64,000 nucleotides of DNA from Squalus acanthias (GCA_030390025.1 CM059432.1:99512001-99576000), one strand, 5' to 3'. Positions 5,141-64,000 are shown, counted from the first letter of the stretch. The notes: a model not told the origin generated them from the sequence alone. Numbers and translations are program-made.

Positions 5141-5683
5141 ATTCTCTTCTCTTGGTGTAGAGAGCCTCTGTGACCTCCTGGATGCAGCGATGGATGGCAA
5201 ACTGTAAGTTGTTAGCTATGTCTCCTTCTGCAGACTGGAATAATCTACTGGTAAAGAAATTGAGGACCACGGTGACCTTAACTGCCACTGGGAGAGCCAT
5301 GTTTGCCTTGCTCTGAGGCTGCAGGTCTGGTTGCAGGATGGGCACAGTTCTGTGACTACCTCCTTGGTGAAGCGGAGCCTCCTAATACACTGCTCCTCGC
5401 TTAAGTGGATATAAGAGAAGTGCTCTCGGAAGACCCTAGGTGGGTAAGGCCTCCTGTTGAGAGACCTCCTAGCCCTCCTCCTCCTCCCGCTGTGCACATC
5501 TTCTTTTCTTTGCTGCCTCTGCTCCCTTTCCCTCCCTTTCCCGAAGATACTCGAGCATGAGGGGGACTGCAAGTAGAGTCCCCATGACTGTGAGCAAGTG
5601 TTGTAAGTAGAAGCCTTTAGATAAGAGTGAAGGCATGCTCCACTTGTCCCAATACTCCCTGTCACCTTAGGACCTTGAAAGAA

Positions 5684-6120
5684 GGGGCAACACGGTGGCA
5701 TAGTGGTTAGCACTGGTGCCTCACAGCGCCAGAGACCCGGGTTCGAATCTGACCTCGGGTGACTGTCTGTGTGGAGTTTGCACATTCTCCCCGTGTCTGC
5801 GTGGGTTTCCTCCGGGTGCTCCGGTTTCCTCCCACTGTCCAAAAATGTGTGGGTTAGGTTGATTTGGCTATGATAAATTGACCCTTAGTGTTAGGGGGGA
5901 TTAAATATGTGGGGTTATGGGGATAGGATGGGATATGTTAGGGGGAATTAAATACGTGGGGTTACGGGGGTAGGGTGGGATATGTGTACTGTGGGGATTA
6001 AAGCAGGGACAGGGTACTGGATTTGGATGATCAGCCATGATCGTATTGAATGGCGGAGCAGGCTCGACGGGCCGAATGGCCTACTCCTGCTCCTAGATTC
6101 TATGTTTCTATGTTTCTATG
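5684..6120 (+). mobile_element. tRNA-derived V-SINE (HE1-like) with CR1-type tail
   Basis: A box TGGCATAGTGG, B box GGTTCGAATC, V domain GTGGAGTTTGCACATTCTCCCCGTGTCTGCGTGGGTTTCCTCCGGGTGCTCCGGTTTCCTCCCAC, tail (TTTCTATG)n shared with local CR1 3' ends. Confidence 0.92.
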
Positions 6121-18953: not shown

Positions 18954-19532
18954 CATAACAATTCGCTGCGAATTTTTTTTTTACTCATGTCGCTTATGGT
19001 TCTTTTGCCAATTACCTTAAAGACTCTTGATCAGAAGAGTTCAAAAAGTATATCATTTTGGAAAACTTAGATGTAACACAAAGAGGATAACTTACTTCCT
19101 ATCATAAGAAGAGAGCAAGATTTCTATAATTATTCTGAAAACAAATTCTGAAATCAAGTCAGTTATTTATTAATACTGAAAATAATGCAACCCCTTTTAA
19201 TATTTTCCTGGTCAGGGTCTTTTTGTATATCGGGATATTCCCTCAGAGATATCTACATTGTGAAGTTTGAGGATAGGATGCAATGCAGCCAAAGAGAGAG
19301 CAGTGTTGCATTCTAGCCATGTCTTTTTGTTCCTATTCACTGGTTTTAACTACTTGGGAACCTATGTATACTGACAAATATTGTCATTGCATTTTGTACA
19401 TTAGGAAAATGTGTAATTTTATTAAGAACAATGGGAAATTCAGGTGACAGGATTGATTGGTGTCTCTTAGCTGGTGATATCTGTAACATGTCCTGTTCTC
19501 TTTGAAGCTAAAATGGAGAAGAAAATTTAATG

Positions 19533-19637
19533 AAAGAAAGAACTTGCCTTATTATAGCACCTTTCACAACCTCAGGACATCCAAAAAGTGTTTTCCAGCC
19601 AATGAAGTACTTTTGAAGTCATTGTTGCAATATAGGG
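19533..19637 (-). mobile_element. 3' tail fragment of a Deu-domain SINE
   Basis: Reverse complement matches 53080-53180 (CTTCAAAAGTACTT...CCTGAGGTTGTGAAAGG). Confidence 0.7.
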
Positions 19638-20128
19638 AGGAATAACTGAAGGTTAACCTGCTGTGGTTACACAATTCTTTCAATTTGTTCAGGGCCATGC
19701 GATTGCCTGCCCTACCTCTGCCTCATCCTCATAATTAACCTGTTTATAGAAGCCACTTTATCCTTGCCCTTGTACTTTAGGCCATTCCAACTTTTCCAGA
19801 TTTCACCACAATCTACTAAACCTATAAATTTATATTTGGTTTATCGATGATATTTAAGGAAATTTATAATACTCTTGAGTACGTGTAATAAATGAATATT
19901 TTTGAATTTTATAAAATGTTGTTACAATGAGCTCTAATTCTGCCTTAACTCTTTCTGGGATGCCTTGATTCAAGGTTGGAGTGAAATACTGAGGTCAATT
20001 TTTGCTTGTGGTGCAAATCGGGAGGGTGGTCTGCAGCGTCTTGTCTCTGTCCACTCAGTAAGGTGGACATTTTACCTTCATTTTTCTCTTTTCCTTTAAT
20101 CACTAGTTCACACACTTATAAACATTGT

Positions 20129-28482: not shown

Positions 28483-31245
28483 AAATTGAGAGGTCGCACA
28501 ACACCAGGTTATAGTCCAACAGTTTTATTTGAAATCACAAGCTTTCGGAGCTATCGATTTGCTCCTTCCTCAGGTGAAGTAAATTAGATACAGAATCTCC
28601 AAAGCATATATAGATGGAAAACAAAGCATGTGTACTTTACAATTGCAGACCAATAAATTAAATCATCCTGACTATCTGCCGAGGTGTGATAAAGTTAATT
28701 AAGTCAGCCAGGAAGGTACCACATCAAAGACATAGCAAGATACAACTGAGACAATGAGGTGTAGTCGCAGGGGTTCTAACGTGTCAAAAGCTGCCGTCTG
28801 TATGTAAAACGAAAAGCTTTAACATTTTTTACTTTTTTACTGGGAAAATTTTTACTTTTTTACTGGGAATCACATCTGTGAACAAGCTAACGACGACTCG
28901 AGTCCGGATCACGTCATGTATCGTGACATAAACCCAAGATCCCGATTGAGACCGTCTTCATGAGTGCGGAACTTGGCTATCAGTTTCTGCTCGATGATTT
29001 TGCGTTGTCGTGTGTTTCTAAGGTTGCCTTGGAGAACGCTTACCCGCAGATCCGAGGCTGAATGTCCTTGACTGCTGAAGTGTTCCCCGACTGGGAGGTA
29101 ACAATCCTGCCTGGCGATTGTTGCGCGGTGCTCGTTCATACGTTGTCTCAGTGTCTGCATGGTCTCGCCGATGTACCATGCCGCGGTGCATTCTTTCCTG
29201 CAACGTATGAGGTAGACAACGTTGGCCGAGTCACATGAGTATGTACCATGTACCTGGTGGGTAGTGTCCTCACGTGTGATGGTGGTATCTGTGTTGATGA
29301 TCTGGCATGTCTTGCAGAGTTTGCCATGGCAGGGTTGTGTGGTGTCGTGGTCGCTGTTATCCTGAAAGCTGGGTAATTTGCTGCGAACGATGGTACTTCT
29401 GAGGTTAGGCGGCTGTTTGAAGGCAAGTAGTGGAGGCGTGGGGATGGCCTTAGCGAGGTGTTTGTCGTCATCGATGACATGTTGAAGGCTGCGAAGAACA
29501 TGGCGTAGTTTCTCCGCTCCGGGGAAGTACTGGACGACGTAGGGTACCCTGTTGGTTGTGTCCCGTGTTTGCCTTCTGAGGAGGTCTATGCGATTTTTCG
29601 CTGTGGCCCGTCGGAACTGTCGATCGATGAGTCGAGCGTCATATCCCGTTCTTACGAGGGCGTTTTTCAGCGTCCGTAGGTGTCCATCGCGTTCCTCCTC
29701 GTCTGAGCAGATCCTGTGTATTCGCAGGGCTTGTCCATAGGGGATGGCTTCTTTAACATGGTTAGGGTGGAAGCTGGAGAAGTGGAGCATCGTGAGGTTG
29801 TCCGTGGGCTTGCGGTAGAGTGAAGTGCTGAGGTGTCCGTCTTTGATGGAGATTCGTGTGTCCAGGAATGAGACTGATTCTGAGGAGTAGTCCATGGTGA
29901 GTTTGATGGTGGGATGGAACATGTTTATGTTATCGTGTAGTCTTTTCAGTGATCCTTCGCCATGGGTCCAAAGGAAGAAAATGTCGTCGATGTATCTGGT
30001 ATACAGCGTTGGCTGGAGGTCCTGTGCAGCGAAGAAGTCTTGCTCGAACTTGTGCATGAAGATGTTGGCGTATTGGGGTGCGAATTTGGTCCCCATGGCT
30101 GTTCCGTGTGTTTGGGTAAAAAAATGGTTGTCGAAGGTGAAGACATTGTGGTCAAGGATGAAGCGGATGAGTTGTAGGATGGCGTCTGGAGATTGGCTGT
30201 TGTTGATGTTGAGTACTGAGGCTGTTGCAGCGATGCCGTCATCGTGGGGGATACTGGTGTAGAGTGCCGATACGTCCATCGTGGCAAGGAGTGTTCCTGG
30301 TTCAACTGGTCCGTGGGTGCTGAGTTTCTGTAAGAAGTCTGTAGTGTCGCGACAGAAGCTGGGGGTTCCCTGTACGATGGGTTTCAGAATGTCCTCGACG
30401 TATCCAGAGAGGTTCTCACACAGGGTTCCATTGCCTGATACGATAGGACGTCCGGGTGTGTTGGCTTTGTGTATCTTTGGGAGGCAGTAGAAGTCTCCCA
30501 CGCGAGGATTACGTGGGATGAGAGCGCGTAGGATGTTTTGAAGGTCTGGATCGAAGGTCTTGATCAGTCTATTGAGTTGGCGGGTGTGTTCTTTGGTCGG
30601 ATCTGCGGGTAGCTGTCTGTAGTGTTCCTGGTTGTCCAGTTGTCGGTATGCTTCTTTACAATAGTCCGTTCTGTTCTGTATGACGATGGCTCCTCCTTTG
30701 TCCGCTGGTTTGATGACAATGTTGCGGTTGGTCTTGAGAGCGTGGATGGCGTTGCGTTGTGCTCGGGTGACATTCTGGACTGTCTTGTGAGTGCGGCTGA
30801 TGAATCTGGCGTTGATGCATCTCCTGACAGCTTGAGCATACATGTCAAGCTTGGGGCAGCGACCCTCCGGAGGGGTCCAGTTTGACTCTTTTTTCTTCGG
30901 TTGCTGCACTGCGAGTCCCTCTGTCTGCTGTTCTGGATCATTGATTGTCTCATTGGGTTTGTTGCTGACATCTTGGGATTTGTGGAAGTATTCCCGGAGC
31001 CTCATTCTCCTGATGAATTCCTCCGTGTCTGCCGCGAGACGGATGCGGTCCATTTTGGTGGTTGGGCAGAACTTGAGCCCTAGGGCGAGAACTTCGATTT
31101 CGTCTGGTTGAAGGGTATGGTCGGACAAGTTGACGATGGACTTCCCTGTGGTTGCAGCCGTGGTACCGGGGGAGGCTTGGTTGCTGCTGGTGGTGATGCC
31201 GAGTTTCTCAAGCTTCCTGTTCTTGATGCGCATGTAGGCAGCGTA
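28483..31245 (-). mobile_element. Penelope-like element (RT + GIY-YIG endonuclease), 5'-truncated
   Basis: TSD GTTAGATA at 28475-28482 and 31246-31253; motifs IKPADKGG, YCLPKIHK, GRPIVS, DVSALYTSI, GTAMGT, YTRYIDDIF, LYRKPT, VVYLIRC..WYIGET. Confidence 0.96.
28535..28577 (-). ncRNA. Minimal type-I hammerhead ribozyme in the Penelope 3' pseudo-LTR
   Basis: Minus strand: UCAC CUGAGGA A GGAGC-aaaucgaua-GCUCC GAAA GC UU GUGA; intact CUGANGA/GAAA core, palindromic AAGCUU stem III, AAUAAA just downstream. Confidence 0.85.
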
Positions 31246-34428: not shown

Positions 34429-34703
34429 AAACTGCACCAAGTTACCACTCTTAAATATATCAAGGAATATATTTTGAACCCAATTTTTTTTTTAATTATG
34501 TTCCATAATGCTGCCTGATTGCACTGGTTCAAGCCAGATTTTACATTTGGCGATATGCGCTTCTCAAAACTAGCACAGTTTGCGCCCGGATCGCCGATTG
34601 CAACCACTCAATGCCTGATACAAATGGCACAGGCTCTGCTGATTTTTAGCTCAAAATTTCAATCAGGGTGTTATATACGCCATTTGACACTGCATTGCAA
34701 TAG

Positions 34704-34802
34704 GTAACGTTGCCTAGTGGTCATGGTATTGGACTAGCAACCCAAAGATTGTAGGTTCAAATCCCATTATGGTGAGTTGTGAAATAGAATTTAATAAATC
34801 TG
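34704..34802 (+). mobile_element. tRNA-derived SINE head remnant
   Basis: TGCCTAGTGG A box and GGTTCAAATCCC B box; similar to the head at 48770-48805. Confidence 0.55.
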
Positions 34803-35189
34803 CTAATTAGAGTTTAATAAATATAAGACTGACCCTCGTTACACATGGCCTTCACCTGACACAGGCAAGTGCTTGGCTCCATATCTCAGGACCCTACCCA
34901 AGGAGACAGCAGCTGGAGTGCCAGTGTCAACAGGGCAGTAAGTGACCCAATGCCATTTTCAGTCCACTACTGTCCCATTTATACCAGGCACAGCGAGTTT
35001 AAATCAGCTCTTATAATGTCAATCACTAAGAGTTTGCGATTTGGGTGTGAAAAGAAATATCGCTTGCATCTTAAGAAAGTTATAAAATGATAGGTAAATA
35101 GCATAAATATTATATCTGTGAAACTTGTATCTTTCCATATCTATGAAATATGTGATTTATTTCTTCCTCATATCAATCAAGAGGAAGAC

Positions 35190-36149: not shown

Positions 36150-37318
36150 ATGGGAACCATTTATACCCTCTCATCCTGGTCCTCAGAATCGGAGGAAGAG
36201 CAGCCTGGGCAGTAGCAGAACCCGGCACAACAGCAGCAGCAGCAACAGGAGCGCCAACCTTCTCCTCAGCCACCTGATGATGCACAGGGCAGAAGGCGTC
36301 AGCGCAGGGCTGCACCGCACCGCAGGAGATACCCCCAACACAGGGTTTACAGGCAGAGGATGAGCTTCCTCAACATGACTGAGCAGCAGTGCCAATGAAG
36401 GCTGAGATTTACGCGAGAGGTAGTCGCTGACACCTGCGCAATGTTGCACCAACACCTGGAGCCCAGAGGAGCGGGTGGACACTCCTTACCAGTGGCTGTC
36501 AAAGTCATCACCACACTCAACTTCTTTGCTTCGGGGTCCTTCCAGGGATCAGCAGCAGACATCAACGGCATCTCCCAGTCGGCCGCACACGCTTGCATCA
36601 CGCAGGTTACCGATGCCCTCTTTGCAAAGTCGTACAATTACATCCACTTCTCCACGGATGAAGCAAGTGTAACCGCGCGTGCGGTTGGCTTTGCAAATAT
36701 GGCAGGCTTGCCAAGGGTGCAGGGCGTAATATATTGCACACATGTGGCCATTAGGGCACCCCATCACAACCCAGCTGTATTTGTCAACCGCAAGGGCTTC
36801 CACTCCCTTAACGTCCAGCTGGTATGTAACCACAGGAAGAACATTATGCATGTTTGCGCCAAGTTCCCTGGCAGTTGCCATGACTCATTCATCCTGCGGC
36901 AGTCTACTGTGCCTCAACTGTTCAATCCGCCAACCCAACTTTTGGGATGGCTACTTGGAGACAAGGGCTAACCCCTGAAGACGTGGCTAATGACACCGAT
37001 GAGGAGGCCATCAAACGAAGCTGAGGAGCGCTACAATGTGATCCACATTTCCACCAGAAGCATCATAGAGTAAACCTTCAGATGCCTCGATAGATCTGGT
37101 GGAGCCCTACTGTACTCACCAGCAAGGGTCTCCAGAATCATCGTGGTCTGTTGTGCACTGCACAACATCGCACATCAGCGTGGCTCAGGGAGGAGGAGGA
37201 GGAGGAGGATGCAGATGAGGAAGACCTTGCGGAGGCGCATGTGCCAGTTCCACCAACACACGAGCATATTGCTGGCCGTGAGGCAAGGGATACACTAATC
37301 CATGCTAGATTTGCGTAA
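36150..37318 (+). pseudogene. Harbinger DDE transposase (premature stops, deletions)
   Basis: MGTIY start; [42 protein letters not shown]. Confidence 0.93.
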
Positions 37319-37589: not shown

Positions 37590-39820
37590 CTACCCTTGTG
37601 ACCATTTGTGTGTTAACTTTCTCTTACGTGTGCTTCTACATGGTGCTTCCCCTATGGTTTCAGCAGATGTTGAGGCACCTTGCTCACTTCCATGCAGCAC
37701 CTGCTTCGACACCTTTGGCAGGCGTCCTCTGGGTTTGGGATCCTGGGAGGGCTCAGCAACAGTCTGCTCCTCCTGTAGCTGTGCAGGGGCTAAGATGGCC
37801 ATTACAGTTGGGTGAGGAATCTGGGGCTCTGAGCAAGGGCTCGGCAGTGGGAGCGCTTGGAGAGGAGCCCACACTTTCTTGTTGTGGACCACCAACATCC
37901 CTCTCATGGGTCACCCGCACTTCACTGCTAGCAAATAGCTGGAGAGCACCTTGCTGCACATGAGGACCCGTCTCTGTACTGACAGTCCTCATAATGGGGA
38001 CGTCCATGTAGCTCTGGTTCCTCTCCTCAATAGATGCCCATCTATCCTCCATAGCAGACCATCTATTTAGAAGAGTCACCATGTTCATTTGCATCTGGCG
38101 ATTTATGTCCTTCATGGAGGTTGCCATCTTTTCCATGGTGGCACCTACATTCGCGATTGAGTGCACCACGGCATTGCTCATGTTTGAGATGGACTCCTCC
38201 ATTCTCTGCACACTCGCAGTTACAGTCACAGAATCACAGAATCACAGAATCCCCACAGTGCAGATAGAGGCCATTTCGGCCCATCGAGCCTGCACCGACA
38301 CATATCCCACCCTATCCCCGTAACCCTATGTATTTAATCCCCCTAACACTAAGGGTCAATTTATCATACCTAATCAACCTAACCCGCACATCTTTGGACT
38401 GTGGGAGGAAACCGGAGCACCCGGAGGAAACCCATGCAGACACGGGGAGAATGTGCAAACTCCACACAGACAGTCACCCGAGGCCAGATTCGAACCCGGG
38501 TCCCTGGCGCTGTGAGCCAACAGTGCTAACCACTATGCCACCGTGTTGCCCACAGTGGTTGCAAACTCTGTCAGAGACTCCTGCACTTGTTCCTGAAGTT
38601 ACAGCACCGCTCTCTTTCTGGATGGCCCCAGAGGAACAGCGCCCACATGCATCTGAGCAGAGCTAGGAGCGTCCCGTACCCTCCGACGAGGACTCTCCAC
38701 TGCTGTTCCTGTCTCCACCATCTGCTGATGCTCACTTGTGAGCTGTGATACACCAGGTGACAATACTAATCCATCTCGCGAATGACCCACCGAGGTGCGC
38801 GTCTCTGCGCTGGTGCTGGGTGCACTCAATTCTGCTGACACTGCGCCCTCAGAGTTTGCAGCTTCCTCTGAGGAGTCTTTTGGCTCTTCCTCCTAGACAG
38901 TGGGGAGGGGGGCTCTCGATGGTCCTGTGGGGGAGTAAAGGCATGAGTTAGACATGTGATATTAACGTAGCAGACACATCCCACTGTGCAGATGATCAGA
39001 ACTCAATCTGTATGATCATCAGATGCCATATCAGTCACTCATGCAATCTAAATGAGAGGGTTGCAAATCTATTCTGTCACCAGCTTGCCCTACTGCGCCC
39101 GTCTCTCCGTCCCCCACTTCCAGCTCCTCAGCACCTCTGACGATGTCAATAGCAGCCTCCTCAGCGGTGGTCAAGTGCGCCATGGAAAGTGGCCCTCCTG
39201 TCCTGCCTCTCTCCCTCTTATTATGGTCTCTCTTTTCCTGCAATGAGAGACACAAGTGGAGTTTGTGTGAGAATGTTGGAGTGAGTGTAGAGAATCCATA
39301 GCATAGATGCTTAGAGGGAGACAAATATGGAGTGAGGTGCCAATACCAAGGGCCCTCCCTGTGCGTTGTTAGTTGTTGTCATTGCATAACAGTGATAGCG
39401 AGTGTGAGGGGTGCCTAGTAGAATAGTGGAGTGATTCTGTACATAGAGAGAGAGGGAAGGTTAATGGTGCAAGGGATGTAAGGGTAAGTTGGGATGTGCA
39501 GGAGTAGGTTGACAATGCAGAGTGCTGCTGATGAGAGGAGATGGGGAGCAGATTGAAGGTAAGTGTGATGTTATACTCACTTTTGCTGAGCGTAGCAGAT
39601 CATTGAACCTTTTGCGGCACTGAACCCAGGTGCGTGCACACAAAGACCTGGCGCTCACCTCCTCAGCAATTTGCAGCCAGGCTGCCTTGGTTTGCTGAGG
39701 AGGCTTCCTCCGTCCATTTGACCGGAACAGAACCTCTTTGCACCCTCTCACCCACTCCACAAGAGCATAGAGGGAGTCATCATCAAATCTTGGAGAGGCC
39801 TTGGCTCATGAAGCAGTCAT
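37590..39820 (-). pseudogene. Three-exon Myb/SANT-like (MSANTD/NAIF1-type) accessory gene; exons about 39820-39581, 39237-39081, 38924-37590
   Basis: SPRFDDDSLYALVE...KAAWLQIAEEVSARSLCARTWVQCRKRFNDLLRSAK|GTGAGT; CAG|EKRDHNKRERGRTGGP...; splice sites conserved in copy B; V-SINE in exon 3. Confidence 0.88.
38227..38551 (-). mobile_element. tRNA-derived V-SINE with (ATTCTGTG)n tail
   Basis: A/B boxes and V domain nearly identical to 5684-5840; TSD ACAGT. Confidence 0.93.
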
Positions 39821-45770: not shown

Positions 45771-46004
45771 ATTGAAGTGAAAGGAAAGTAAAACATGCAG
45801 GGTGTTAAATGAGTGACAGATCCAGTTCAAATGATCCCCTGGTCTTAGTGAGGTTTCACTATTCTTAACAAAAAATTAAGAAACATAACAAGAATTATGG
45901 AACAATATTGCCGCACAAGGTAAGAAGAAATTAGGAACTTAAATTAGATACAGAAAACTAATATTTACCTGCAGCATAAATGCGGATATATTTTAAATTA
46001 TAAA

Positions 46005-46063
46005 AGGAAAAACTTGCATTTATATAGTGCCTTTCACGACCTCATAACGTCCCAAATTGCTTC
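46005..46063 (-). mobile_element. Deu-SINE 3' tail; the rest resumes at about 48808-48910 after the LINE insertion
   Basis: ACTTGCATTTATATAGTGCCTTTCACGACCTC, continued by AAGTACTTTTGAAG...GGCAGCCAATTTGTGCACAGCAAGCTCCCACAAACAGCA. Confidence 0.75.
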
Positions 46064-48805
46064 ATTTACTTTTTTATTCATTCATGGGAAGTCCAGCATT
46101 TATTGCCCATCCCTAATTGCCCTTGAAGATGGTGGTGAGCCGCCTTCTTTAACTGCTGCAGTCCATGTGGTGAAGGTACTCCCACAGTGCTGTTAGGGAG
46201 GGAGTTCCAGGATTTTGACCCAGCGACGATGAAGGAACTGCGATATACTTATAAGTCAGGATGATGTGTAACTTGGAGAGGAACTTCGAGCTGGTGGTGT
46301 TCCCATGCGCCTGCTGCCTTTGTCCTTCTAGGGGTAGAGGTCACGGGTTTGGGAGGTGCTGCCGAAGAAGCCTTGGTGAGTTGCTGCAGTGCATCTTGTA
46401 GACGGTACACACTGCAGCCACGGTGTGCCGGTGGTGGAGGGAGTGAATGTTTAAGGTGGTGGATGGGGTGCCAGTCATGTGGGCTGCTTTGTCCTGGATG
46501 TTGTCGAGCTTCTTGAGTGTTGTTGGAGATGCACTCATCCAGGCAAGTGGACAGTATTCCATCACACTCCTTACTTGTGCCTTGTAGATGGTGGAAATGC
46601 TTGGGGAGTCAGGAGGTGAGACATTTTCCGCAGAATACCTAGCCTCTGACCTGCTCTTGTAGCCATAGTATTTATGTGGCTGGTCCAGTAAAATTTCTGG
46701 TCAACAGTGACCCCCAGGATGTTGATGGTGGGGGATTCGGCAATGGTAATGCCGCTGAATGTCAAGGGGCAGTGGTTAGATTCTCGCTTGTTGGAGATAG
46801 TTATTGCCTGGCACTTGTGCGGCGCGAATGTTACCTGCCACTTATCAGCCCAAGCCTGAATGTCGCCCAGGTCTTGTTGCATGTGGGCAGGTACTGCTTC
46901 ATTATCTGAGGAGGTGCGAATGGCATTGAACACTGTGCAGTCATCAGCGAACATCACCATTTCTGACCTTTTGTTGGAGGGAAGGTCATTGATGAAGCAG
47001 CTGAAGATGGCTAGGCCTAGGACACTGCGCTGAGGAACTCTTGCAGCGATGTCCTGGGGCTGTGATGATTGACCTTTAATCACCACAACCATCTTCCTTT
47101 GTGCTAGGTATGACACCAGCCAATGAAGCGTTTCCCCCCCGATTCCCAATGACTTCAGTTTTACTAGGGCTCCTTGATGCCAGACTCGGTCAAATGCTGC
47201 CTTGATGTCAAGGGCAGTCACTCTCACCTCACCTCTGGAATTCAACTCCTTTGTTCATGTTTGGACCAAGGCTGTAATGAGGTCTGGAGCCGAGTGGTCC
47301 TGGCACAACCCAAACTGGGCATCAGTGAGCAGGTTATTGGTGAGTAAGTACCGCTTGATAGCACTGTCGATGACACCTTCCATCACTTTGCTGATGATTG
47401 AGAACAGACTGATGGGGCAGTAATTGGCCAGATTGGATTTGTGAACAGGACATACCTGGGCAGTTTTCCAGATTGTCGGATAGATGTCAGTGTTGTAGCT
47501 GTACTGGAATAGCTTGGCTAGAGGCGCGGCTAGTTCTGGAGCACAAGTCTTCAGCACGATAGCCGGGATGTTGTCGGGGCCCATAGCCTTTGCTGTATCC
47601 AGTGCGCTCAGCCGTTTCTTGATATCACGTGGAGTGAATCGAATTGGCTGAAGACTGGCTTCTGTATTGAACCAGGTTTGGTCCCCTGGCTTGATAATGT
47701 TAGAGTGAGGAATATGCCGGGCCATGAGATTACAGATTGTGGTGGAATACAATTGTGCTGCTGCTGATGGCCCACAGCGCCTCATGGATGCCCAGTTTTG
47801 AGCTGCTAGATCTGTTCTGAATTTATCCCATTTAGCACGGTGGTAGTGCCACACAACACGATGGAGGGTGTCCTCAGTGTGAAGACAGGACTTTGTCTCC
47901 ACAATGACTGTGCAGTGGTCACTGCTACCAATGTTGTCCTGGACAGATACATCTGCGACAGGTAGATTGGTGAGGACGAGGTCAAGTAGGTTTTTCCCTC
48001 ATGTTGGTTCTCTCACCACCTGTCGCAGGTCCAGACTGGCAGCTATGTCCTTCAGGACTCAGCCAGTTCAGTCAGTAGTGGTGCTACCGAGCCACTCTTG
48101 GTGATGGACATTGAAGTGCCCCACCCAGAGTACATTCTGTGCCCTTGCTACTCTCAGTGCTTCTTCCAAGTGGTGTTCAACATGGAGGAGTACTGATTCA
48201 TCAGCTGAGGGAGGGCAGTAGGTGGTAATCAGCAGGAGGTTTCCTTGCCCATGCTTGACCTGAAGCCATGGAACTTCATGGGGTCCGGAGTCAATGTTGA
48301 GGACTCCCAGGGCCACTCCTTCCTGACTGTATACCACTGTGGGTATGTCCTATCCCACAGGTATGGTGATGGAGGAGTTTGGGACATTGGCTGAAAGGTA
48401 TGATTCTGTGAGTATGACTAGTCTGTGGGACAGCTCTCCCAATTTTGGCACTAGTCCCCAGATGTTGGTGAGGAGGACTTTGCAGTGGGCTGGGTGTGCC
48501 GTTGTCGTGTCCGTAGCCGGCGCCGAGGTCGATGTGTCGGGTGGTCCATCTGGTTTTATTCTTATTATTGTTTTTTGTAGCGGTTTTTTACAACTGAGTG
48601 GCTTGCTAGGCCATTTCAGAGGGCAGTTAAATGTCAACCACATTGCTGTGGGTCTGGAGTCACATATAGATAGGCCAGAACAGGTAAGAATGGCAGATTT
48701 CTTTCCCTGCAGGAGATCACTGGTTATTACCTCATGTAACAGGACATTAGTGAACCAGATTCTGGATTACTAGTCCAGTAACATAACTACTATGCTACCG
48801 TTCCC
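46064..48805 (-). mobile_element. CR1-group LINE of a second lineage (APE + RT, decayed) with tRNA/SINE-like 5' end
   Basis: LLTNIWGL..ILTESYL, TYCPPS, GHFNVHHQEWLGS, AMGPDNIP, ALDIKAAFDRVWH, MFADDCT; 3' end AAGGGCAATTAGGGATGGGCAATAAATGCTGG. Confidence 0.9.
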
Positions 48806-50250
48806 GATACCCAATAAAGTACTTTTGAAGTCTCATCATTGTTGTAATGTAGGAAGCATGGCAGCCAATTTGTGCACAGCAAGCTCCCACAAACAGCAAT
48901 GAAATAAATGTCCATATCATTTGATCTTGTAAAATATTCCAGCTGTATATAATCAAAGAATGATATTCTCCTCAGCATACCTATTAGGTTTTCTCAAAAA
49001 TCTTGCACAATAAGCTTACATTTCTGCTATATTTTTCTATAAATTGAAAGAAAAATAATCTCAAAATTCCACTTAAAGTGATCATTAATTTCATGTACTA
49101 ATTGAAGTCTGTCACTGAGCTCAACATAACTGTTAGCTTCTTACATCTGTTCCCTATAAATCTGTCAGCAATCTACTGATCCACTATATGAGCACTTCAC
49201 CATGATACTGCCATTACAGAGAGCGGCAGAAGAAGCAGACAGCTGTTGATAAGTTAATCTAAATCAGACACCCACTCTACTTCCAAGAATCCCTTCTGTA
49301 ATTAGAAGAGGGATGTCGCTATATAACTAACAAATTTCAAAGAATGACATCTGATGGAAGTTAAAGGGCAGACAGCTTTATCTTTCTACTAGAAAAATAC
49401 AGGTGTATTCATTGATTTTTTTTTTATTAAGTTCATCTTACACAGCACTCAGAAAGCTGACAGCCTTTGTCCAACCTATCAGGTGCATTTACTAAATTTA
49501 CAGCCTACTTCTATGGTGCATTCACATTCCACAAACTTGGTGTCGGTGTGAAGCTTTGCACCGATGCTAAACTTGGAGTGTAAATTAGATGTGACTTTCC
49601 AAACTGATTCCAAAGTAAAGTGGAATGAGTCTCATTCTGCTTTGTTTCAGTGTCAGGTCAGACGCTGACACTAAAGCCACAGTTGTATTGTAAATGTATC
49701 CATAAAGATGTAAGGACAGTGAAGAATTGCAGATATCTTTTAAAAATACTCATGGTCAGAATAATTTATGCAAGTGAAAGAATACAGCAGATCATGCCTA
49801 AGATTCATGTAAAGGAATCCCATTCACCTAAGTAAAACTTATCTATATATACCAAATATTCTTTCAATCTTAAATGGTACTTTATCCCCCACAATTTTCT
49901 GAAAATTGTACGTTTGTAAAATATAATAGAATCAATTTTGAACTTCCAGAGTGGTAATCCTCTTGCAGTCTTGTAAATGAGACAGTTTTGATAAACAGTA
50001 AATGAGATCAAGCTCCAATAAATTGTTAATATTCGTGTTGTGTGGTTTCACAGAAATGATTTGAGTTCATCATTAACCTTTGCTTCTAATGCCCAATTAT
50101 ACTGGACATTTGGTGTGGATGGGCATGATCTTTTCCATTGCTCTGATGTCAACATGCAGTATGACAATGCTGATTTTGAGATTTCAGCAGTCTGATACTG
50201 GGAGGGGGTGTGGGAGAGGAATTTTAACCCCCAAAAATGGGTGGGAAGTT

Positions 50251-50720: not shown

Positions 50721-52059
50721 AAGGTGTTAAAAGTCTGAATCCCGACCCCTTCCCGCCTCTAATTCACCCACTTTTGGTTTTACCGGAGGTGGGATGGGGG
50801 CGGGCAGCCGACCCGTTCCCAGGAGGCGGGTCTCCCATTTTAATATTATAATGAGGCTGCCGTGCCTCAGATTTAACCTCCATTTTAAATTTAACTTTAG
50901 CTGTTCAAGTTTTGCAGGCTTCGTGAAACTCGCCAGCTAAAGTAAGGCGAGGCCTGCTGGATCCAGGAGGTAAGTGCCTTTACACTTACCTCCTGGATCC
51001 AGCGTCCCTGCCTAACCCAACCCCCCATGATTCGAGACCCCGACCCCTCCCACGAGGCCTCCGATCCCCCCACGAGGCCAGCCCCCCCCCGCCCCCCAGC
51101 CCCACGATCATGCTGCTCCTGGCCCCCCGTGCTGCTTCTGGTCTTGGTACGGAGTTGAAGTGCGCGCTAGGAACTGCCACCCCGAGGTTGAGTATGGCTC
51201 TGATTGACAAATAAATTGCGTGCTAGTGCTCATTAAAGAGGCTGCTTCAATTAACAACCTCTCCTAACAGCGAGCAGCTGAACAGGAGTAAAGAAGTCAA
51301 TGCTGAGGATTTCTAGGGCTACTCAAAGCCATGCTCAGCTTTCACTGTTCACTTGCTGCTGGAGATAGACTGTGTTTCAACAGGACATTTGAGACACATC
51401 GGGAGACTTTCTGGTACACTGTGTCAAGACTTCACCAGCACTCTAACAACATTTTTCGTGGAAATTCTCTGAGGACACCACCTAAAGAGAGCGAGTGCTG
51501 TGCTACTCTACCTTATAGGAGTCACCAGGAGAAAGGGAGTGCTTGGTCATGAGGATCTTGCTTGGGGTCCCCCTTGGTCTGGAGGAGGAACGGGAGGAGG
51601 ACAAGCAGATCAGCACCTGCTGCTGCAGGAGAGAGGGCAGGGGGCAGGGGGGCAGGGTGGACTCCTTCCCCCACCCCTGCGGGTACAGGGCATCCCTCAT
51701 CCACCAGGAACTCCAGTGCCATGTCCGAGAACCTGTGCGCCCTCTCCCTCAGTCCCTGAACAATCCTGAAACATTCTGTTGTGTGTCAGCCAGCGCAGTC
51801 CACACCTTCAGTCCACTAAAATTGCTTTTAAACAGTGCTTGAGTGCCAAACCTGCAGCTGTCTGTTTTAGCACCTCCAGGCACATTTAAATCATGGTAAT
51901 CATCAATTAGCCCCAAAATTGCAGGCTAAAACCAGACTTTCAAACAAGGGTGTCTTATTGGCACAGCACCCATTTAGCGTCTGTTTTCACCCTTTCACCA
52001 AAGTAACCCCCTTTATTTTCTAGGGAACCTAAGATCTAATGCTAGTTATAGCTTGGCTC

Positions 52060-53180
52060 AGTAGTGTTAGACATGGCTCAGTGGTTGCATTTTCATTTCT
52101 TGAGGTTGTGGCTTCAAGTCCCACTCCAGAGACTTGAGCATAAAATCCAGGCTGACACGCCAGTGCAGTACTGAGGGAGTGCTGTGCTGTCGGAGGTGCC
52201 CTCTTTCAGATGAGACATGAAACCAAAGCCCCGTCTGCCCTCTCATGTTGTAGGAATTATTTACAACTTTCACACCTCCCACGATAGGTGTTAGAGTAGG
52301 GTTCGTAGACCTGAATCCACTTTAACAGAAACACACACATACACTATCTCTCACAGAGATGTTTTATTTAACCATTAACACATGGATTAAATAAGAAACA
52401 CAACTAGACCTGTCCTGGAGTCTTCAAGTGCTCAGTTGGAGAGACCAATGATCACCCGAAGTCCATAGAATTCTTTAGATCTCTTTAGACCAGGACACAT
52501 TTGTCCTCATCGACTGCAGTAAAAAACCTAGGTCTTGTGTCAGTTCTTATATTTCTTGTGTTCCGATTCTTTATGTGACGTTTACGTGTATATCTCCATC
52601 ACTGGCTCATTCAAGCATGGCTTTTCTCCTTGTTGTTCATGATTGGTTCAGAGTTTAGTGAGGTTACTTCATCACGTGTGTCACTTGTTGCAGTTAATGA
52701 GGGTCTTATCTCAAGACAGTGCTGGTCAGTTCCACTGTTCCATAGCAACTACAGACCTGTCCCTGTATGAGTAATGTCTGTTAAAAAATATGTTCCTCCA
52801 CACTTTCTGCTTTCAACTTGCATTCCAAAGCCATCATTAAAAGTTCTGTTTTGTATTAAAGTTCTTCTTGTTGTTGGGGATGTTTAAAATAGATTTCCCT
52901 TCAATCTAGACGTAAAAGATCCCATGGCACTATTTCGAAGAAGAGCGGGGGCGTTCTCCCCGGTGTCCTGGCCAATATTTATCCCTCAACCAACATCACT
53001 AAAACAGATGATCTGGTCATTCACATAGTGCTGTTTGTGGAACCTTGTTGTGTGCAAATTGGCTGCCTTGTTTCCTACACGGCAACAGTGACTAGACTTC
53101 AAAAGTACTTTATTTGCTGTAAATCACATTAGGATTTCCTGAGGTTGTGAAAGGCACCCTATAAATGCAAGCCTTTATTT
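52060..53180 (+). mobile_element. Deu-domain tRNA SINE (SacSINE1/AmnSINE1-like) split by a solo LTR
   Basis: TGGCTCAGTGG A box, TTCAAGTCCC B box, CAGTGCAGTACTGAGGGAGTGCTG...GACGTAAAAGATCCCATGGCACTATTTCGAAGAAGAGC, tail GTTGTGAAAGGCACCCTATAAATGCAAG. Confidence 0.85.
52249..52903 (-). mobile_element. Solo LTR, 655 bp
   Basis: TG...CA termini (TGTAGGAA / TTCCCTTCA); flanks ATGT/ATCT; removal rejoins the SINE; minus-strand AATAAA near 52363. Confidence 0.78.
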
Positions 53181-53831: not shown

Positions 53832-55085
53832 ATGGGGACCATTTATATCCTCTCATCCTGGTCGTCAGATTCGGAGGAAGAGCAGCCGCGGCAGTACCAC
53901 AACCAGCCACAACAGCAGCACCAGCACCAGGAGCGCCAAACTCCTCCTCACCCACCTGATGATGCACAAGGCAGTGGCCATCAGTGCAGGGCTGCACCTC
54001 GCCACAGGAGATACCTCCAACACCGGGTTTACAGGCAGAGGATCAGCTTCCTGAGCATGACTGAACAGCAGTGCCAAAGGAGGCTGAGACTTTCGAGAGA
54101 GGTAGTCGCTGACATCTGCGCAATGCTGCACCAACACCTGGAGCCCAGAGGAGCGGGTGGACACTCCTTACCAGTGGCTGTCAAAGTCACCACCGCACTC
54201 AACTTCTTTGCTTCGAGCTACTTCCAGGGATCAGCTGTAGACATCAGCGGCATCTCCCAGTCGGCCGCACACACTTGAATCACGCAGGCTACCGACGCCC
54301 TCTTTGCAAAGGCACACAATTACATCCACTTCTCCACAGATGGCCCAAATGATACCGCGTGTGCAGTTGGCTTTGCCAATATGGTAGGCTTGCCAATGGT
54401 GCAGGGCGTCATAGACTGCACACATGTAGCCATGAGGGCCCCCTATCACAACCCAGCTGTATTTGTCAACCGCAAGGGATTCCACTCCCTGAATGCCCAG
54501 CTGGTGTGTAACCACAGGAAAATCATCATGCATGTTTGCGCAAAGTACCCTGGCAGTTGCCATGACTCGTTCATCCTGCGCCAGTCTACTGTGCCTCAGC
54601 TCTTCCATCCGCCAACTCAACTTTCTGGATGGCTTCTTGGCGACAAGGGCTATCCCCTGAAAAAGTGGCTTTTGACACCGATGAGGAGGCCATCAAACGA
54701 TGCCGAGGAGCGGTACAATGTGAGTCACATATCCACCAGAAGCATCATCGAGCAAACCATCGGCTTGCTCAAAATGCGCTTCTGATGCCTGGACAGATCT
54801 GGAGGAGCCTTGCAGTATACACCAGCCAGGATGTCCAGAATTGTCGTGGTCTGCTGTGCCCTGCACAGCATCACACAGCAGTGCGGCTTAGTGCTGCCGG
54901 AAGAACAAGTGGCTCAGCACACAGCCTCCTCAGAAGAAGAGGACGAAGAGGAGAATGAGGAGGAGGATGAGGAAGAGGACGAGGAGCAACGCCTTGCGGG
55001 GCCGGATGTGGCCAATCTAGCAGCATGCGACCACATTGCTGGCCGTCAGGCAAGGGATGCACTCATCCATGCCAGATTCGCGTAA
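53832..55085 (+). pseudogene. Harbinger DDE transposase, full length, in-frame stops at about 54276 and 54783
   Basis: Catalytic motifs IDCTH, GDKGY and IEQTIG all present; acidic C-terminal tail. Confidence 0.93.
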
Positions 55086-59448: not shown

Positions 59449-60675
59449 ATGGGAACCATTTATACCCTCTCATCCTAGTCCTCAGAGTCAGAGGAAGAGC
59501 AGCCTGGGCAGTAGCAGAACCAGGCACAACAGCAGCAGCAACAATAGGAGCGCCAACCTTCTCCTCACCCACCTGATGCTGCACAGGGCAGAAGGCGTCA
59601 GCGCAGGGCTGCACCTCAACGCAGGAGATTCCCCCAACACCGGGTTTACAGGCAGAGGATGAGCTTCCTCAACATGACTGAGCAGCAGTGCCAAAGGAGG
59701 CTGAGACTTTCACGAGAGGTAGTCGCTGACATCTGTGCAATGTTGCACCAACACCTGCAGCCCAGAGGAGCAGGTGGACACTCCTTACCAGTGGCTGTCA
59801 AAGTCATCACCGCACTGAACTTCTTTGCTTCAGGGTCCTTCCAGGGATCAGCAGCAGACATCAGCGGCATCTCCCAGTCAGCCGCACACAGTTGCATCAC
59901 GCAGGTTACCGATGCCCTCTTTGCAAAGTCGCACAATTACATCCACTTCTCCACGGATGAAGCAAGTATTACCGCGCATGCGGTTGGCTTTGCAAATATG
60001 GCAGGCTTGCCAAGGGTGCAGGGCATCATAGACTGCACACATGTGGCCATTAGGGCACCCCATCACAACCCAGCTGTATTTGTGAACCGCAAGGGCTTCC
60101 ACTCCCTTAACATCCAGCTGGTGTGTAACCACAGGAAGAACATTATGCATGTTTGCGCCAAGTTCCCTGGCAGTTGCCATGACTCATTCATCCTGCGGCA
60201 GTCTACTGTGCCTCAGCTGTTCAATCTGCCCTTGCAACTTTCTGGATGGCTGCTTGGAGACAAGGGCTATCCCCTGAAGACATGGCTAATGACACCGATG
60301 AGGAGGCCATCAAACGAAGCTGAGGAGCGCTACAATGAGAGCCACATTTCCACCAGAAGCATCATAGAGCAAACCATCGGCTTGCTTAAAATGCGATTCA
60401 GATGCCTCGACAGATCTGTTGGAGCCCTACAGTAAGCACCAGCCAGGGTCTCCAGAATCATCGTGGTCTGCTGTGCCCTGCACAACATCGCACAGCAGCG
60501 TGGCTTACCGCTGCCTGAGGAACAAGTTGCTCAGCGCACAGCCTCCTCAGAAGAGGAGGAGGAGGAGGCAGATTAGGAAGACCATGCAGAGGCGCATGTG
60601 CCAGTTCTACCAGCACACGAGCACATTGCTGGCCATGAGGCAAGGGATGCACCAATCCAGACCTGATTCGTGTAA
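59449..60675 (+). pseudogene. Harbinger DDE transposase (258-aa intact catalytic core at 59659-60435, stops on either side)
   Basis: [22 protein letters not shown]. Confidence 0.93.
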
Positions 60676-62830: not shown

Positions 62831-63187
62831 GAAGCAGCAGAATTTGAATGAAATACCAAAACTGCATGGGCCCCTTAAATGCAGATGAATCGAAGATGTC
62901 AGCAGAGGCGAGCAGCAGACCCGAACCCACTGATTGGGCCGGGTAACGCGCACAGCGGGCTTAATAAACCCAGTTAAGTCAAAATTGTTATTTCAGCGTG
63001 GCTGAAACCGGCAGCAGGACCAGAACACACCTAGCAGCCAACCCGATGCGAACCCGCCTTCGATGGCAAAATCGCGGCCTAAAGACCCAAGCTGATTCTT
63101 ATTTTAGGGAAGCTAGTGTCCCTGAGGGACCAGCTTCCAGTAGCCTTACAGTTGCAGTTGAAAGGGTTTTCCAAGCCTATATCTGAA

Positions 63188-63800
63188 GCAGCCACATAAA
63201 TACTGTGGCTACAAGGGCAGGTCAGTGGCTGGGTATTCTGCGACGAGTGTCTCACCTCCTGACTCCCCAAAGCCTTTCCACCATCTACAAGGCACAAGTA
63301 CGGAGTGTGATGGAATACTCTCCTCTTGCCTGGATGACTGCAGCTCCAACAACACTCAAGAAGCTCGATACCATCCAGGACAAGGCAGCCTGCTTGATTG
63401 GCACCCATCCACCACATTAAACATTCACTCGCTCCACCACCAGCGTACCGTGGCTGCAGTGTTTACCATCTACAAGATGCACCACAGCAACCTGCCAGGG
63501 CTTCTTTGACAGCACCTCCCAAACCCCCGACCTCTACCACCTAGAGCGACCAGGGCAGCAGGCACTTGGGAACACCAACACCTGTAAGTTCCCCTCCAAG
63601 TCACGCACCATCCTGACTTGGAAATACATCGCCATTCCTTCATCGTCTCTGGGTCAAAATCCTGGAACTCCCTCACCTAACCACACTGTGGGAGTACCTT
63701 CACCACACGGACTGCAGCGGTTCAAGGCGGCGGCTCACCACCACTTTATCAAGGGCAATTAGGGATGGGCAATAAATGCTGGTCTTGCCAGTGGTGCCCA
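63188..63800 (+). mobile_element. 3' fragment of the second-lineage CR1-group LINE
   Basis: ATRAGQWLGILRRVSHLLTPQSLSTIYKAQVRSVMEYSPLAW; tail AAGGGCAATTAGGGATGGGCAATAAATGCTGG as at 46085-46127. Confidence 0.9.
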
Positions 63801-64000
63801 CTGCATTGCAAATGAGGGCCCTGTGAGGAAAGTGCAGTGGTTTGCAGCGGAGTCACTTAGGCGGACATTACTCCCCTTCCCCAACAAATAACTTGCCAAC
63901 ACAAGGAGAATCCAGCCCGTTGAGTCTAGAGGTGACAAGAGCAAGCGTTTTGGTGGTAATTCTTGTTGCTGTTTTGTTGGAATCCTATGATATTGACCTT

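Follow-up and report, generated by a model that had tools for sequence, protein, structure and literature searches.

The element at 46070-48805 on the minus strand of a 64,000-nt stretch of Squalus acanthias DNA (the whole stretch is referred to below as the window) is, judged by its sequence, a defunct member of the elasmobranch Zenon family of LINEs, in the CR1 group. The copy is decayed and 2736 nt long, and it begins with the remains of a tRNA-like head, followed by a core, a linker and a single APE-RT reading frame; the avoidance of T-runs on the sense strand of this elasmobranch Zenon copy is new here. The explanation that we favor, and that we regard as evenly balanced between right and wrong, is that elasmobranch Zenon may be a Pol III-headed single-ORF LINE with an unconventional translation start. 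The original prediction was upheld in its single-ORF, autonomous-type LINE, in the tRNA-type head and core, and in a short element sharing both ends of the LINE, whereas the core as source of the start codon and its identity with the Meta/MESC domain were not sustained.

Extent of the Zenon copy and its tRNA-like head

The frame at 46113-48484 (minus strand), which was read through its breaks with X for the Pfam domain calls, contains APE and RT domains in a single ORF (PF14529, Exo_endo_phos_2, E 3.4e-11; PF00078, RVT_1, E 1.5e-26). It carries stops and frameshifts, and approximately 134 codons are missing near 47663. Only ∼320 nt separate the 5′ end from the endonuclease motif, so the copy, which was also surveyed for ATGs, has no ORF1, as had been predicted. 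The tail (46070-46125, minus strand), delimited by the joints to the core end described below, consists of the last codons, the stop, a short 3′ UTR and a poly-A end of six residues (46075-46070). Close protein matches to the copy were those of sharks and rays. For five elasmobranchs, Zenon LINEs without ORF1, with a poly-A end and with consensuses of 2.9-3.3 kb are given in the accessible part of PMC13343379, the supplement of which provided consensus rows that were compared over the first 400 nt of each. By eye, the 5′ 400 nt of the copy were collinear with SquAca_Zenon-1, and the exact core-end 16-mer had five matches in the supplement, of which the two displayed were Zenon rows. The copy has the 5′ start, core, linker, single APE-RT frame, absence of ORF1 and poly-A of the elasmobranch Zenon consensuses, and within these visible parts no difference in kind was found; it is a decayed member of that family. 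According to the same parts of the paper, vertebrate Zenon is confined to elasmobranchs, coelacanth and hagfish, and elasmobranch Zenon is mostly dead, since in six consensus rows 59-2313 copies retain 0-3 intact ORFs.

Sequence comparison and contigs indicated that the whole copy entered an older SINE in a single piece. The left half of the 3′ part of this host SINE, Deu-type by eye, lies at 48811-48923 and the right half at 45995-46056 (both minus strand); the halves match, in order, uninterrupted copies near 53005-53171 and 19523-19639, with a few bases unaccounted for. Because the flanks are two halves of one older SINE, the head and the LINE body were inserted together. In the search for a target-site duplication, GTA alone was repeated at both ends of the element. 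Assembled contigs of four runs (X1, X3, X12 and X16; three organisms, four studies) were also compared, at least half of the sampled words being contained in 14 of the 24 runs listed. Three of these runs are DNA and X16 is presumably RNA; contig depth was taken neither as copy number nor as expression. Among the matches listed, contigs broke at 48805 into dissimilar flanks in 701 cases (X1) and 610 cases (X12), none being among those listed for X3 and X16. A 25-nt pattern of the endonuclease region was found in no stretch of viral or of metagenome contigs, and protein alignment against viral contigs (78 candidates) yielded no relative of the copy.

The 5′ part of the head occupies 48761-48805 (minus strand), its first bases being those of SquAca_Zenon-1 in the visible supplement. 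As claimed, a tRNA-like head begins at 48805: an A-box-like 11-mer (48797-48787) and an anticodon-like arm (48778-48762) with AGT in its loop were found on the minus strand. ARAGORN called no tRNA gene in this head, the Rfam tRNA model gave 17.4 bits (E 0.74; cut-off 29), and no B box was found in 48481-48830. The likeness to a tRNA is weak because ∼145 nt, comprising the variable arm, the B box and an AT-rich spacer, were lost at 48761/48760 in a deletion private to this copy (hand count against the visible SquAca_Zenon-1 row); in agreement with this, 538 contigs of X12 have a loose end at 48761 and run on into the part lost here. With its B box deleted, the Pol III promoter of this copy would be broken. 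A related truncated head with an intact B box, and without a core behind it, lies at 34700-34810 (plus strand), and its segment 34712-34767 was the sole Rfam match of the window above a curated cut-off (tRNA, 32.5 bits).

Head, core and linker open all seven elasmobranch Zenon consensuses over the 400 nt compared (SquAca_Zenon-1, -2 and -3, CarCar, ScyCan, RhiTyp and HypSab_Zenon-1; five species in all, namely sharks and one ray, HypSab), and this start is absent from the first 400 nt of the three Zenon rows of hagfish and coelacanth. Six B-box 10-mers matched six rows of the visible supplement, all of them elasmobranch Zenon, and the ray row there holds a variant B box. A hairpin-like extra arm stands between the anticodon arm and the B box of the consensus heads; in the Squalus rows it resembles, by eye, a tandem copy of the anticodon arm. 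Contigs bridging core and linker were absent among the matches listed, and the link between the two rests on the copy, the consensuses and the gene models P0048 and P0193. Since the predicted head-core-ORF junction recurs in seven of seven rows and head and LINE body together split a single older SINE, chance adjacency, which unrelated 5′ ends would have indicated, was excluded. No tRNA was found in related LINE loci by ARAGORN (55 of 80 loci) or by Rfam (15 of 80), a result of little weight because both tools also miss or barely score the head of the Zenon copy.

Core, short derivative and start of the reading frame

The core (48590-48760, minus strand) is common to the LINE and its short derivative, as judged from contigs and consensuses. 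It carries a private insert (48741-48709) and four extra nucleotides near 48671; the core of the family, in the visible rows, is ∼140 nt. The likeness between core and Meta domain that had been put forward was not borne out by a comparison that consisted of two motif searches and inspection by eye. None of the 33 and 6 matches that the two Meta motifs have in the window falls within 48340-48805, and neither the 66-bp Meta consensus of MetaSINEs nor the BivaMeta rows showed a likeness by eye to the core or to the visible 5′ ends of intact Zenon consensuses. MetaSINE heads were aligned to tRNA-Thr in the available passages of PMC4824008, PMC7245038 and PMC4758252, and the Zenon head is likewise a tRNA type, with an AGT loop; according to these passages, MESC SINEs have been described only in snails and mussels. 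The UCON3 and Deu domains did not resemble the core by eye either, searches of the 80 related loci for core or tail gave nothing beyond short matches (E 0.08-0.97), and folding of the core (z -1.03) and of the tail (z 0.38) was no better than that of shuffled sequences.

The core end (48589-48596) was joined to the tail (46121-46126) in 57, 50, 79 and 11 contigs of the four runs, with ∼2465 nt of the LINE skipped. Because these joints occur in all four runs, a short element of core and tail exists, and the predicted sharing of the tail by a SINE was confirmed. The joint sides in the contigs are at most 41 nt, and none of those displayed spans head to tail; we infer that the short form begins with the tRNA head, the A and B boxes of which were seen in the LINE consensuses. 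Rarer joints with the same 5′ breakpoint and a longer 3′ part were observed at 46149-48590 (four of four runs) and 46192-48589 (three of four), and these are possibly independent, repeated deletion derivatives. Like a SIDE, the short form retains the two ends of the LINE and nothing else; SIDEs of the Persaeus kind, however, bear neither a small-RNA head nor a Pol III promoter, whereas the LINE from which the short form derives has a tRNA-like 5′ end. In lepidopteran Zenon, the Persaeus SIDEs likewise keep both LINE ends and arose repeatedly by internal deletion (PMC6740152, available part). Given that lepidopteran Zenon repeatedly yields such derivatives, our analysis favors internal deletion as the probable source of today's short forms, though not of the first gain of the head. 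According to that part of the paper, Persaeus lacks both tRNA homology and a Pol III promoter, in contrast to the shark derivative, the core of which sits behind a tRNA head.

The ATG of the core (48641-48643, minus strand), in frame with the endonuclease in this copy alone by hand reading of the frames, opens 97 codons; as the original prediction had described, the frame runs into the endonuclease motifs LLTNIWGL and ILTESYL. The further claim that the core supplies the start codon of the ORF failed in the consensuses, where the frame stops after 25 codons in HypSab, 27 in RhiTyp, 25 in SquAca-1, 24 in SquAca-2 and 14 in SquAca-3 (hand reading of the visible rows). It stays open in CarCar and ScyCan, in a frame reading KPDGPP, and the last ∼35 nt before the LLTNI motif lie outside the visible 400 nt of these two rows. 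In HypSab, the one row with an intact linker that is visible through LLTNI, the KPDGPP frame is off the endonuclease frame. Since the frame of the core ATG stops in five consensuses and, in the two where it stays open, follows a register that is off-frame in HypSab, the start codon of elasmobranch Zenon is, by these sequences, not the core ATG at 48643. The register of this ATG is not conserved, and the endonuclease is reached only via indels private to this copy.

These indels lie in the linker (48485-48589, minus strand), a LINE-specific segment with an A-rich stretch of variable length according to contigs and consensuses. The copy reads in frame from the core ATG because of one extra base in the A-rich stretch, a gain of 2 nt at 48536 and a loss of 7 nt at 48486/48485. 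The 2 nt at 48536 were left out in 23, 15, 30 and 1 contigs of the four runs, and these contigs amount to 18-26% of the depth in the three DNA runs; the loss of 7 nt was deduced from SquAca-2 and HypSab and is absent from the contig table. A linker ATG is kept in six of the seven visible consensus rows and reads ATA in the copy (48559-48557); it would need a -1 shift to reach the endonuclease frame. In the visible HypSab row the endonuclease frame can be followed upstream through an Arg-rich peptide in which no ATG occurs, and a remnant of this peptide was recognized in another frame of the copy. A basic stretch stands just before the endonuclease motif in the related proteins P0029, P0032, P0045 and P0009. 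Gene model P0048 joins core- and linker-derived pieces to the endonuclease, with the off-frame linker peptide passing straight into VLLTNIW, which may reflect a private base or an artefact of the model; it resembles what the linker ATG with a -1 shift would yield, in a single gene model. P0193, which may be spliced, leads from the core ATG into LLINIW without the linker. The MWLT N-terminus was found in none of 38 candidates among longer proteins (weak by the tool's own note) and in two of six of similar length, both gene models that may be spliced, and the N-terminal peptide from the core ATG had no counterpart in related proteins.

T-run scarcity and the polymerase of the full-length RNA

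If the head drives transcription of the whole RNA, oligo-T is expected to be rare on the sense strand. The T-run tests were performed on one decayed copy, from which ∼580 nt of family sequence are missing. It contains 6 TTT+ runs versus 20.9 expected (0 of 2000 shuffles as low), under a simplest null that is inflated by CpG decay; dinucleotide shuffling gave 12.2 expected (p 0.007), and within the coding frame 5 runs were counted versus 12.9 under a protein-preserving null (p 0.001). TTT is the sole non-CpG word among the eight rarest trinucleotides of the copy. For comparison, the best 80 of 460 related LINE loci were used, which are 27-42% identical to P0029 and are taken without assignment to a clade. 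The median of their TTT+ ratio was 1.11, and the lowest locus had 0.59 (Zenon copy 0.30); for the dinucleotide-null ratio the corresponding values were 1.03 and 0.66 (Zenon copy 0.49), and for the codon-null ratio, in the 73 of 80 loci with a long frame, 0.99 and 0.65 (Zenon copy 0.39). All 80 loci hold at least two TTTT, and their longest TTTT-free stretch reached at most 1219 nt versus 2112 nt in the Zenon copy. Phe makes up 2.5% of the Zenon frame versus at least 3.0% in all 73 related frames. Because the A-runs of the copy are not depleted and their number is normal, the scarcity is strand-specific. The only sense-strand TTTT (46690-46693, minus strand) is private to this copy, since contigs read another letter at 46690 in 97-100% of the depth in four of four runs. 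By eye, TTTT was absent from the visible 400 nt of all seven elasmobranch Zenon rows and present in all three visible rows of hagfish and coelacanth.

Other counts were less distinctive. For TTTT taken alone, which is the actual terminator, the deficit was not significant (1 vs 4.5, p 0.06; 1 vs 2.4, p 0.24). A second Zenon copy at 63183-63815 (plus strand), 5′-truncated and 87% identical, was undepleted over its 633 nt (4 TTT+ versus 3.8-4.2 expected), three of its four runs not being common to the main copy; its frame closes with KGN-stop where the tail retained by the short derivative begins. Five CR1 pieces in the window gave TTT+ ratios of 0.81-1.27 under the dinucleotide null, with one of five frames also below the codon null (p 0.014), and TTT avoidance judged by codon context (p 0.011) lacked specificity, as the CR1 controls show a similar tendency. 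The Penelope-like element of the window, which holds a T7 and a T4, had 5 TTT+ versus 10.0 (ratio 0.50, p 0.014, dinucleotide null) and gave no Rfam tRNA match at the curated cut-off. Overall, the T-run scarcity of the sequence fits whole-length transcription by Pol III and would be compatible with it.

The main competitor, possible though less probable than not, is that the head is family-wide and Pol II makes the full RNA, either from a core promoter or with the A and B boxes serving as enhancer-like TFIIIC sites, while Pol III makes the short derivative only. The scarcity of T-runs would then have another cause, e.g., base composition or constraints on the RT or RNA. That the Penelope-like control is equally TTT-poor, that the TTTT test was not significant and that an AATAAA lies close to the 3′ end of the Zenon copy all speak for this explanation, as does the textbook rule that LINEs are transcribed by Pol II and SINEs by Pol III (PMC10886601 and PMC5786205, in the passages available). 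It accounts poorly, however, for a B box kept in six of the seven visible consensuses across sharks, with a variant in the ray row, for a depletion that none of the 80 related loci approaches, and for the restriction of the effect to one strand.

The remaining alternatives concern the start codon and the ownership of the head. That the core ATG at 48643 is the family start codon, the SINE having given both promoter and translation start, is very unlikely. The frame open for 97 codons into the endonuclease motifs, the presence of the ATG itself in all seven visible consensuses and the course of P0193 from the same ATG into the endonuclease agree with it; the stops after 14-27 codons in five of the visible consensuses, the contigs of all four runs that leave out the 2 nt at 48536 and, with less weight, the lack of this N-terminus in 38 longer proteins and in relatives do not. 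Somewhat better placed, but still improbable, is a start that the core provides with a different codon, through readthrough of AUG-GCC-UAG or from a core-end UUG in frame with the Arg-rich peptide. Three of five species in the visible rows (CarCar, ScyCan and HypSab) have the Arg-rich frame open back to exactly that stop, whereas a TAA right behind the TTG closes the frame in SquAca-1 and the Zenon copy, and RhiTyp differs in register. The least credible alternative is a target-specific LINE whose insertions into this SINE fall where the core ends, or a fortuitous nesting, in which case the head would only appear to be that of the LINE. Small-RNA genes and repeats do serve Tx1-type LINEs as insertion targets (PMC4494074, in part). 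Targeting into a SINE is nevertheless made unlikely by the single tail after the ORF, behind which the host Deu-type SINE resumes, and by the truncated copy at 63183-63815 with no head before it; moreover, the junction is identical in seven visible consensuses.

Under the Pol III-headed explanation, Zenon came, in the common ancestor of sharks and rays, to start with a tRNA-derived head with A and B boxes, a core of ∼140 nt and a short linker, an arrangement seen in the sequences themselves. Pol III would make the full-length RNA from this head, and the single APE-RT protein would start with the Arg-rich stretch in the linker. Its translation start would be unconventional, either by non-AUG initiation or re-initiation in the Arg-rich frame or from the linker AUG with a -1 frameshift. 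The protein would then copy RNAs that end in the common tail by target-primed reverse transcription, a process established for LINEs and RNAs with the cognate tail. Joining of the core end to the tail, which was seen in the contigs, would yield a tRNA-SINE of ∼400 nt, with the head presumably included, that uses the same enzyme. The fullest form of this proposal, in which the whole 3.3-kb Zenon RNA is made by Pol III, oligo-T was purged down to the choice of codons and amino acids, a conventional AUG is lacking and tRNA-SINEs arise via single deletions, is tentative and falls a little below an even chance. Uncapped Pol III RNA is hard to translate, which counts against a Pol III LINE. The weak processivity of Pol III and the size of SINEs (100-700 bp; PMC10886601) also count against a long Pol III RNA.

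Comparison with known elements and other features of the window

The words tRNA and promoter, and likewise polymerase, Pol III and start codon, are absent from the main text of PMC13343379, so the head, the derivative SINE and the T-run scarcity are undescribed in that text. Neither a tRNA-headed shark LINE nor its SINE, nor an avoidance of terminators by it, was found in literature titles and the beginnings of abstracts, a scope outside which lie Repbase, Dfam, SINEBase and subscription journals, where the SINE may be named; five short motifs of the window had no occurrence in the literature searched. The 5′ structure of this repeat, abundant in sharks and rays, and that of its SINE appear to be previously undescribed in that literature. 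Precedents for small-RNA sequence in autonomous LINEs are known, namely RTE-1_DAn with related elements (PMC5786205) and crocodilian Tx1 elements with U1/U2-derived 5′ ends (cited in PMC4758252), all of other clades as far as the available passages go. The passages of PMC5786205 gave no position, promoter function or terminator analysis for RTE-1_DAn, and U1 and U2, unlike a tRNA head, are without internal promoters. The bipartite SINEs Bov-tA and SINE2_Gav likewise combine a tRNA head with a 5′ part and a 3′ part of a LINE; according to those passages of PMC5786205, the head was added to a deleted derivative and RTE and Vingi were the only contributors, whereas in shark Zenon the autonomous CR1-group LINE itself bears the head. 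SINEU elements hold oligo-T that excludes Pol III (PMC4494074, in part).

A LINE made by Pol III, if true, would break the division of LINEs to Pol II and SINEs to Pol III. It would also provide a natural example of a Pol III RNA that is both long and translated, which poses the problem of ribosome loading on uncapped RNA, and a one-step route from LINE to SINE that bears on the origin of SINE bodies. Even with Pol II as the polymerase, the organization of the 5′ end in this repeat, which is abundant in sharks and rays, and in its SINE would appear to be new to the literature searched.

Several other features were observed in the window and in the databases. In-frame Zenon pieces are contained in the shark and ray gene models P0007, P0010, P0012, P0016, P0018, P0020 and P0022, probably as annotation artefacts or exonisation. 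A weak 30-nt match to the Zenon endonuclease region at 51295-51342 (E 0.048) is possibly an old remnant. The frame with RT and GIY-YIG-like parts at 28534-31240 (minus strand), inserted in a CR1, is the element that we take to be Penelope-like from its motifs. Transposase fragments, presumably Harbinger-like by their motifs, lie at 36399-36971, 54279-54785 and 59548-60435 (plus strand) and elsewhere, with partner frames on the opposite strand. Finally, two copies of one repeat, seen via their translations at 5216-5884 and 38268-38666, are assumed to be V-SINE-like (HE1-like).
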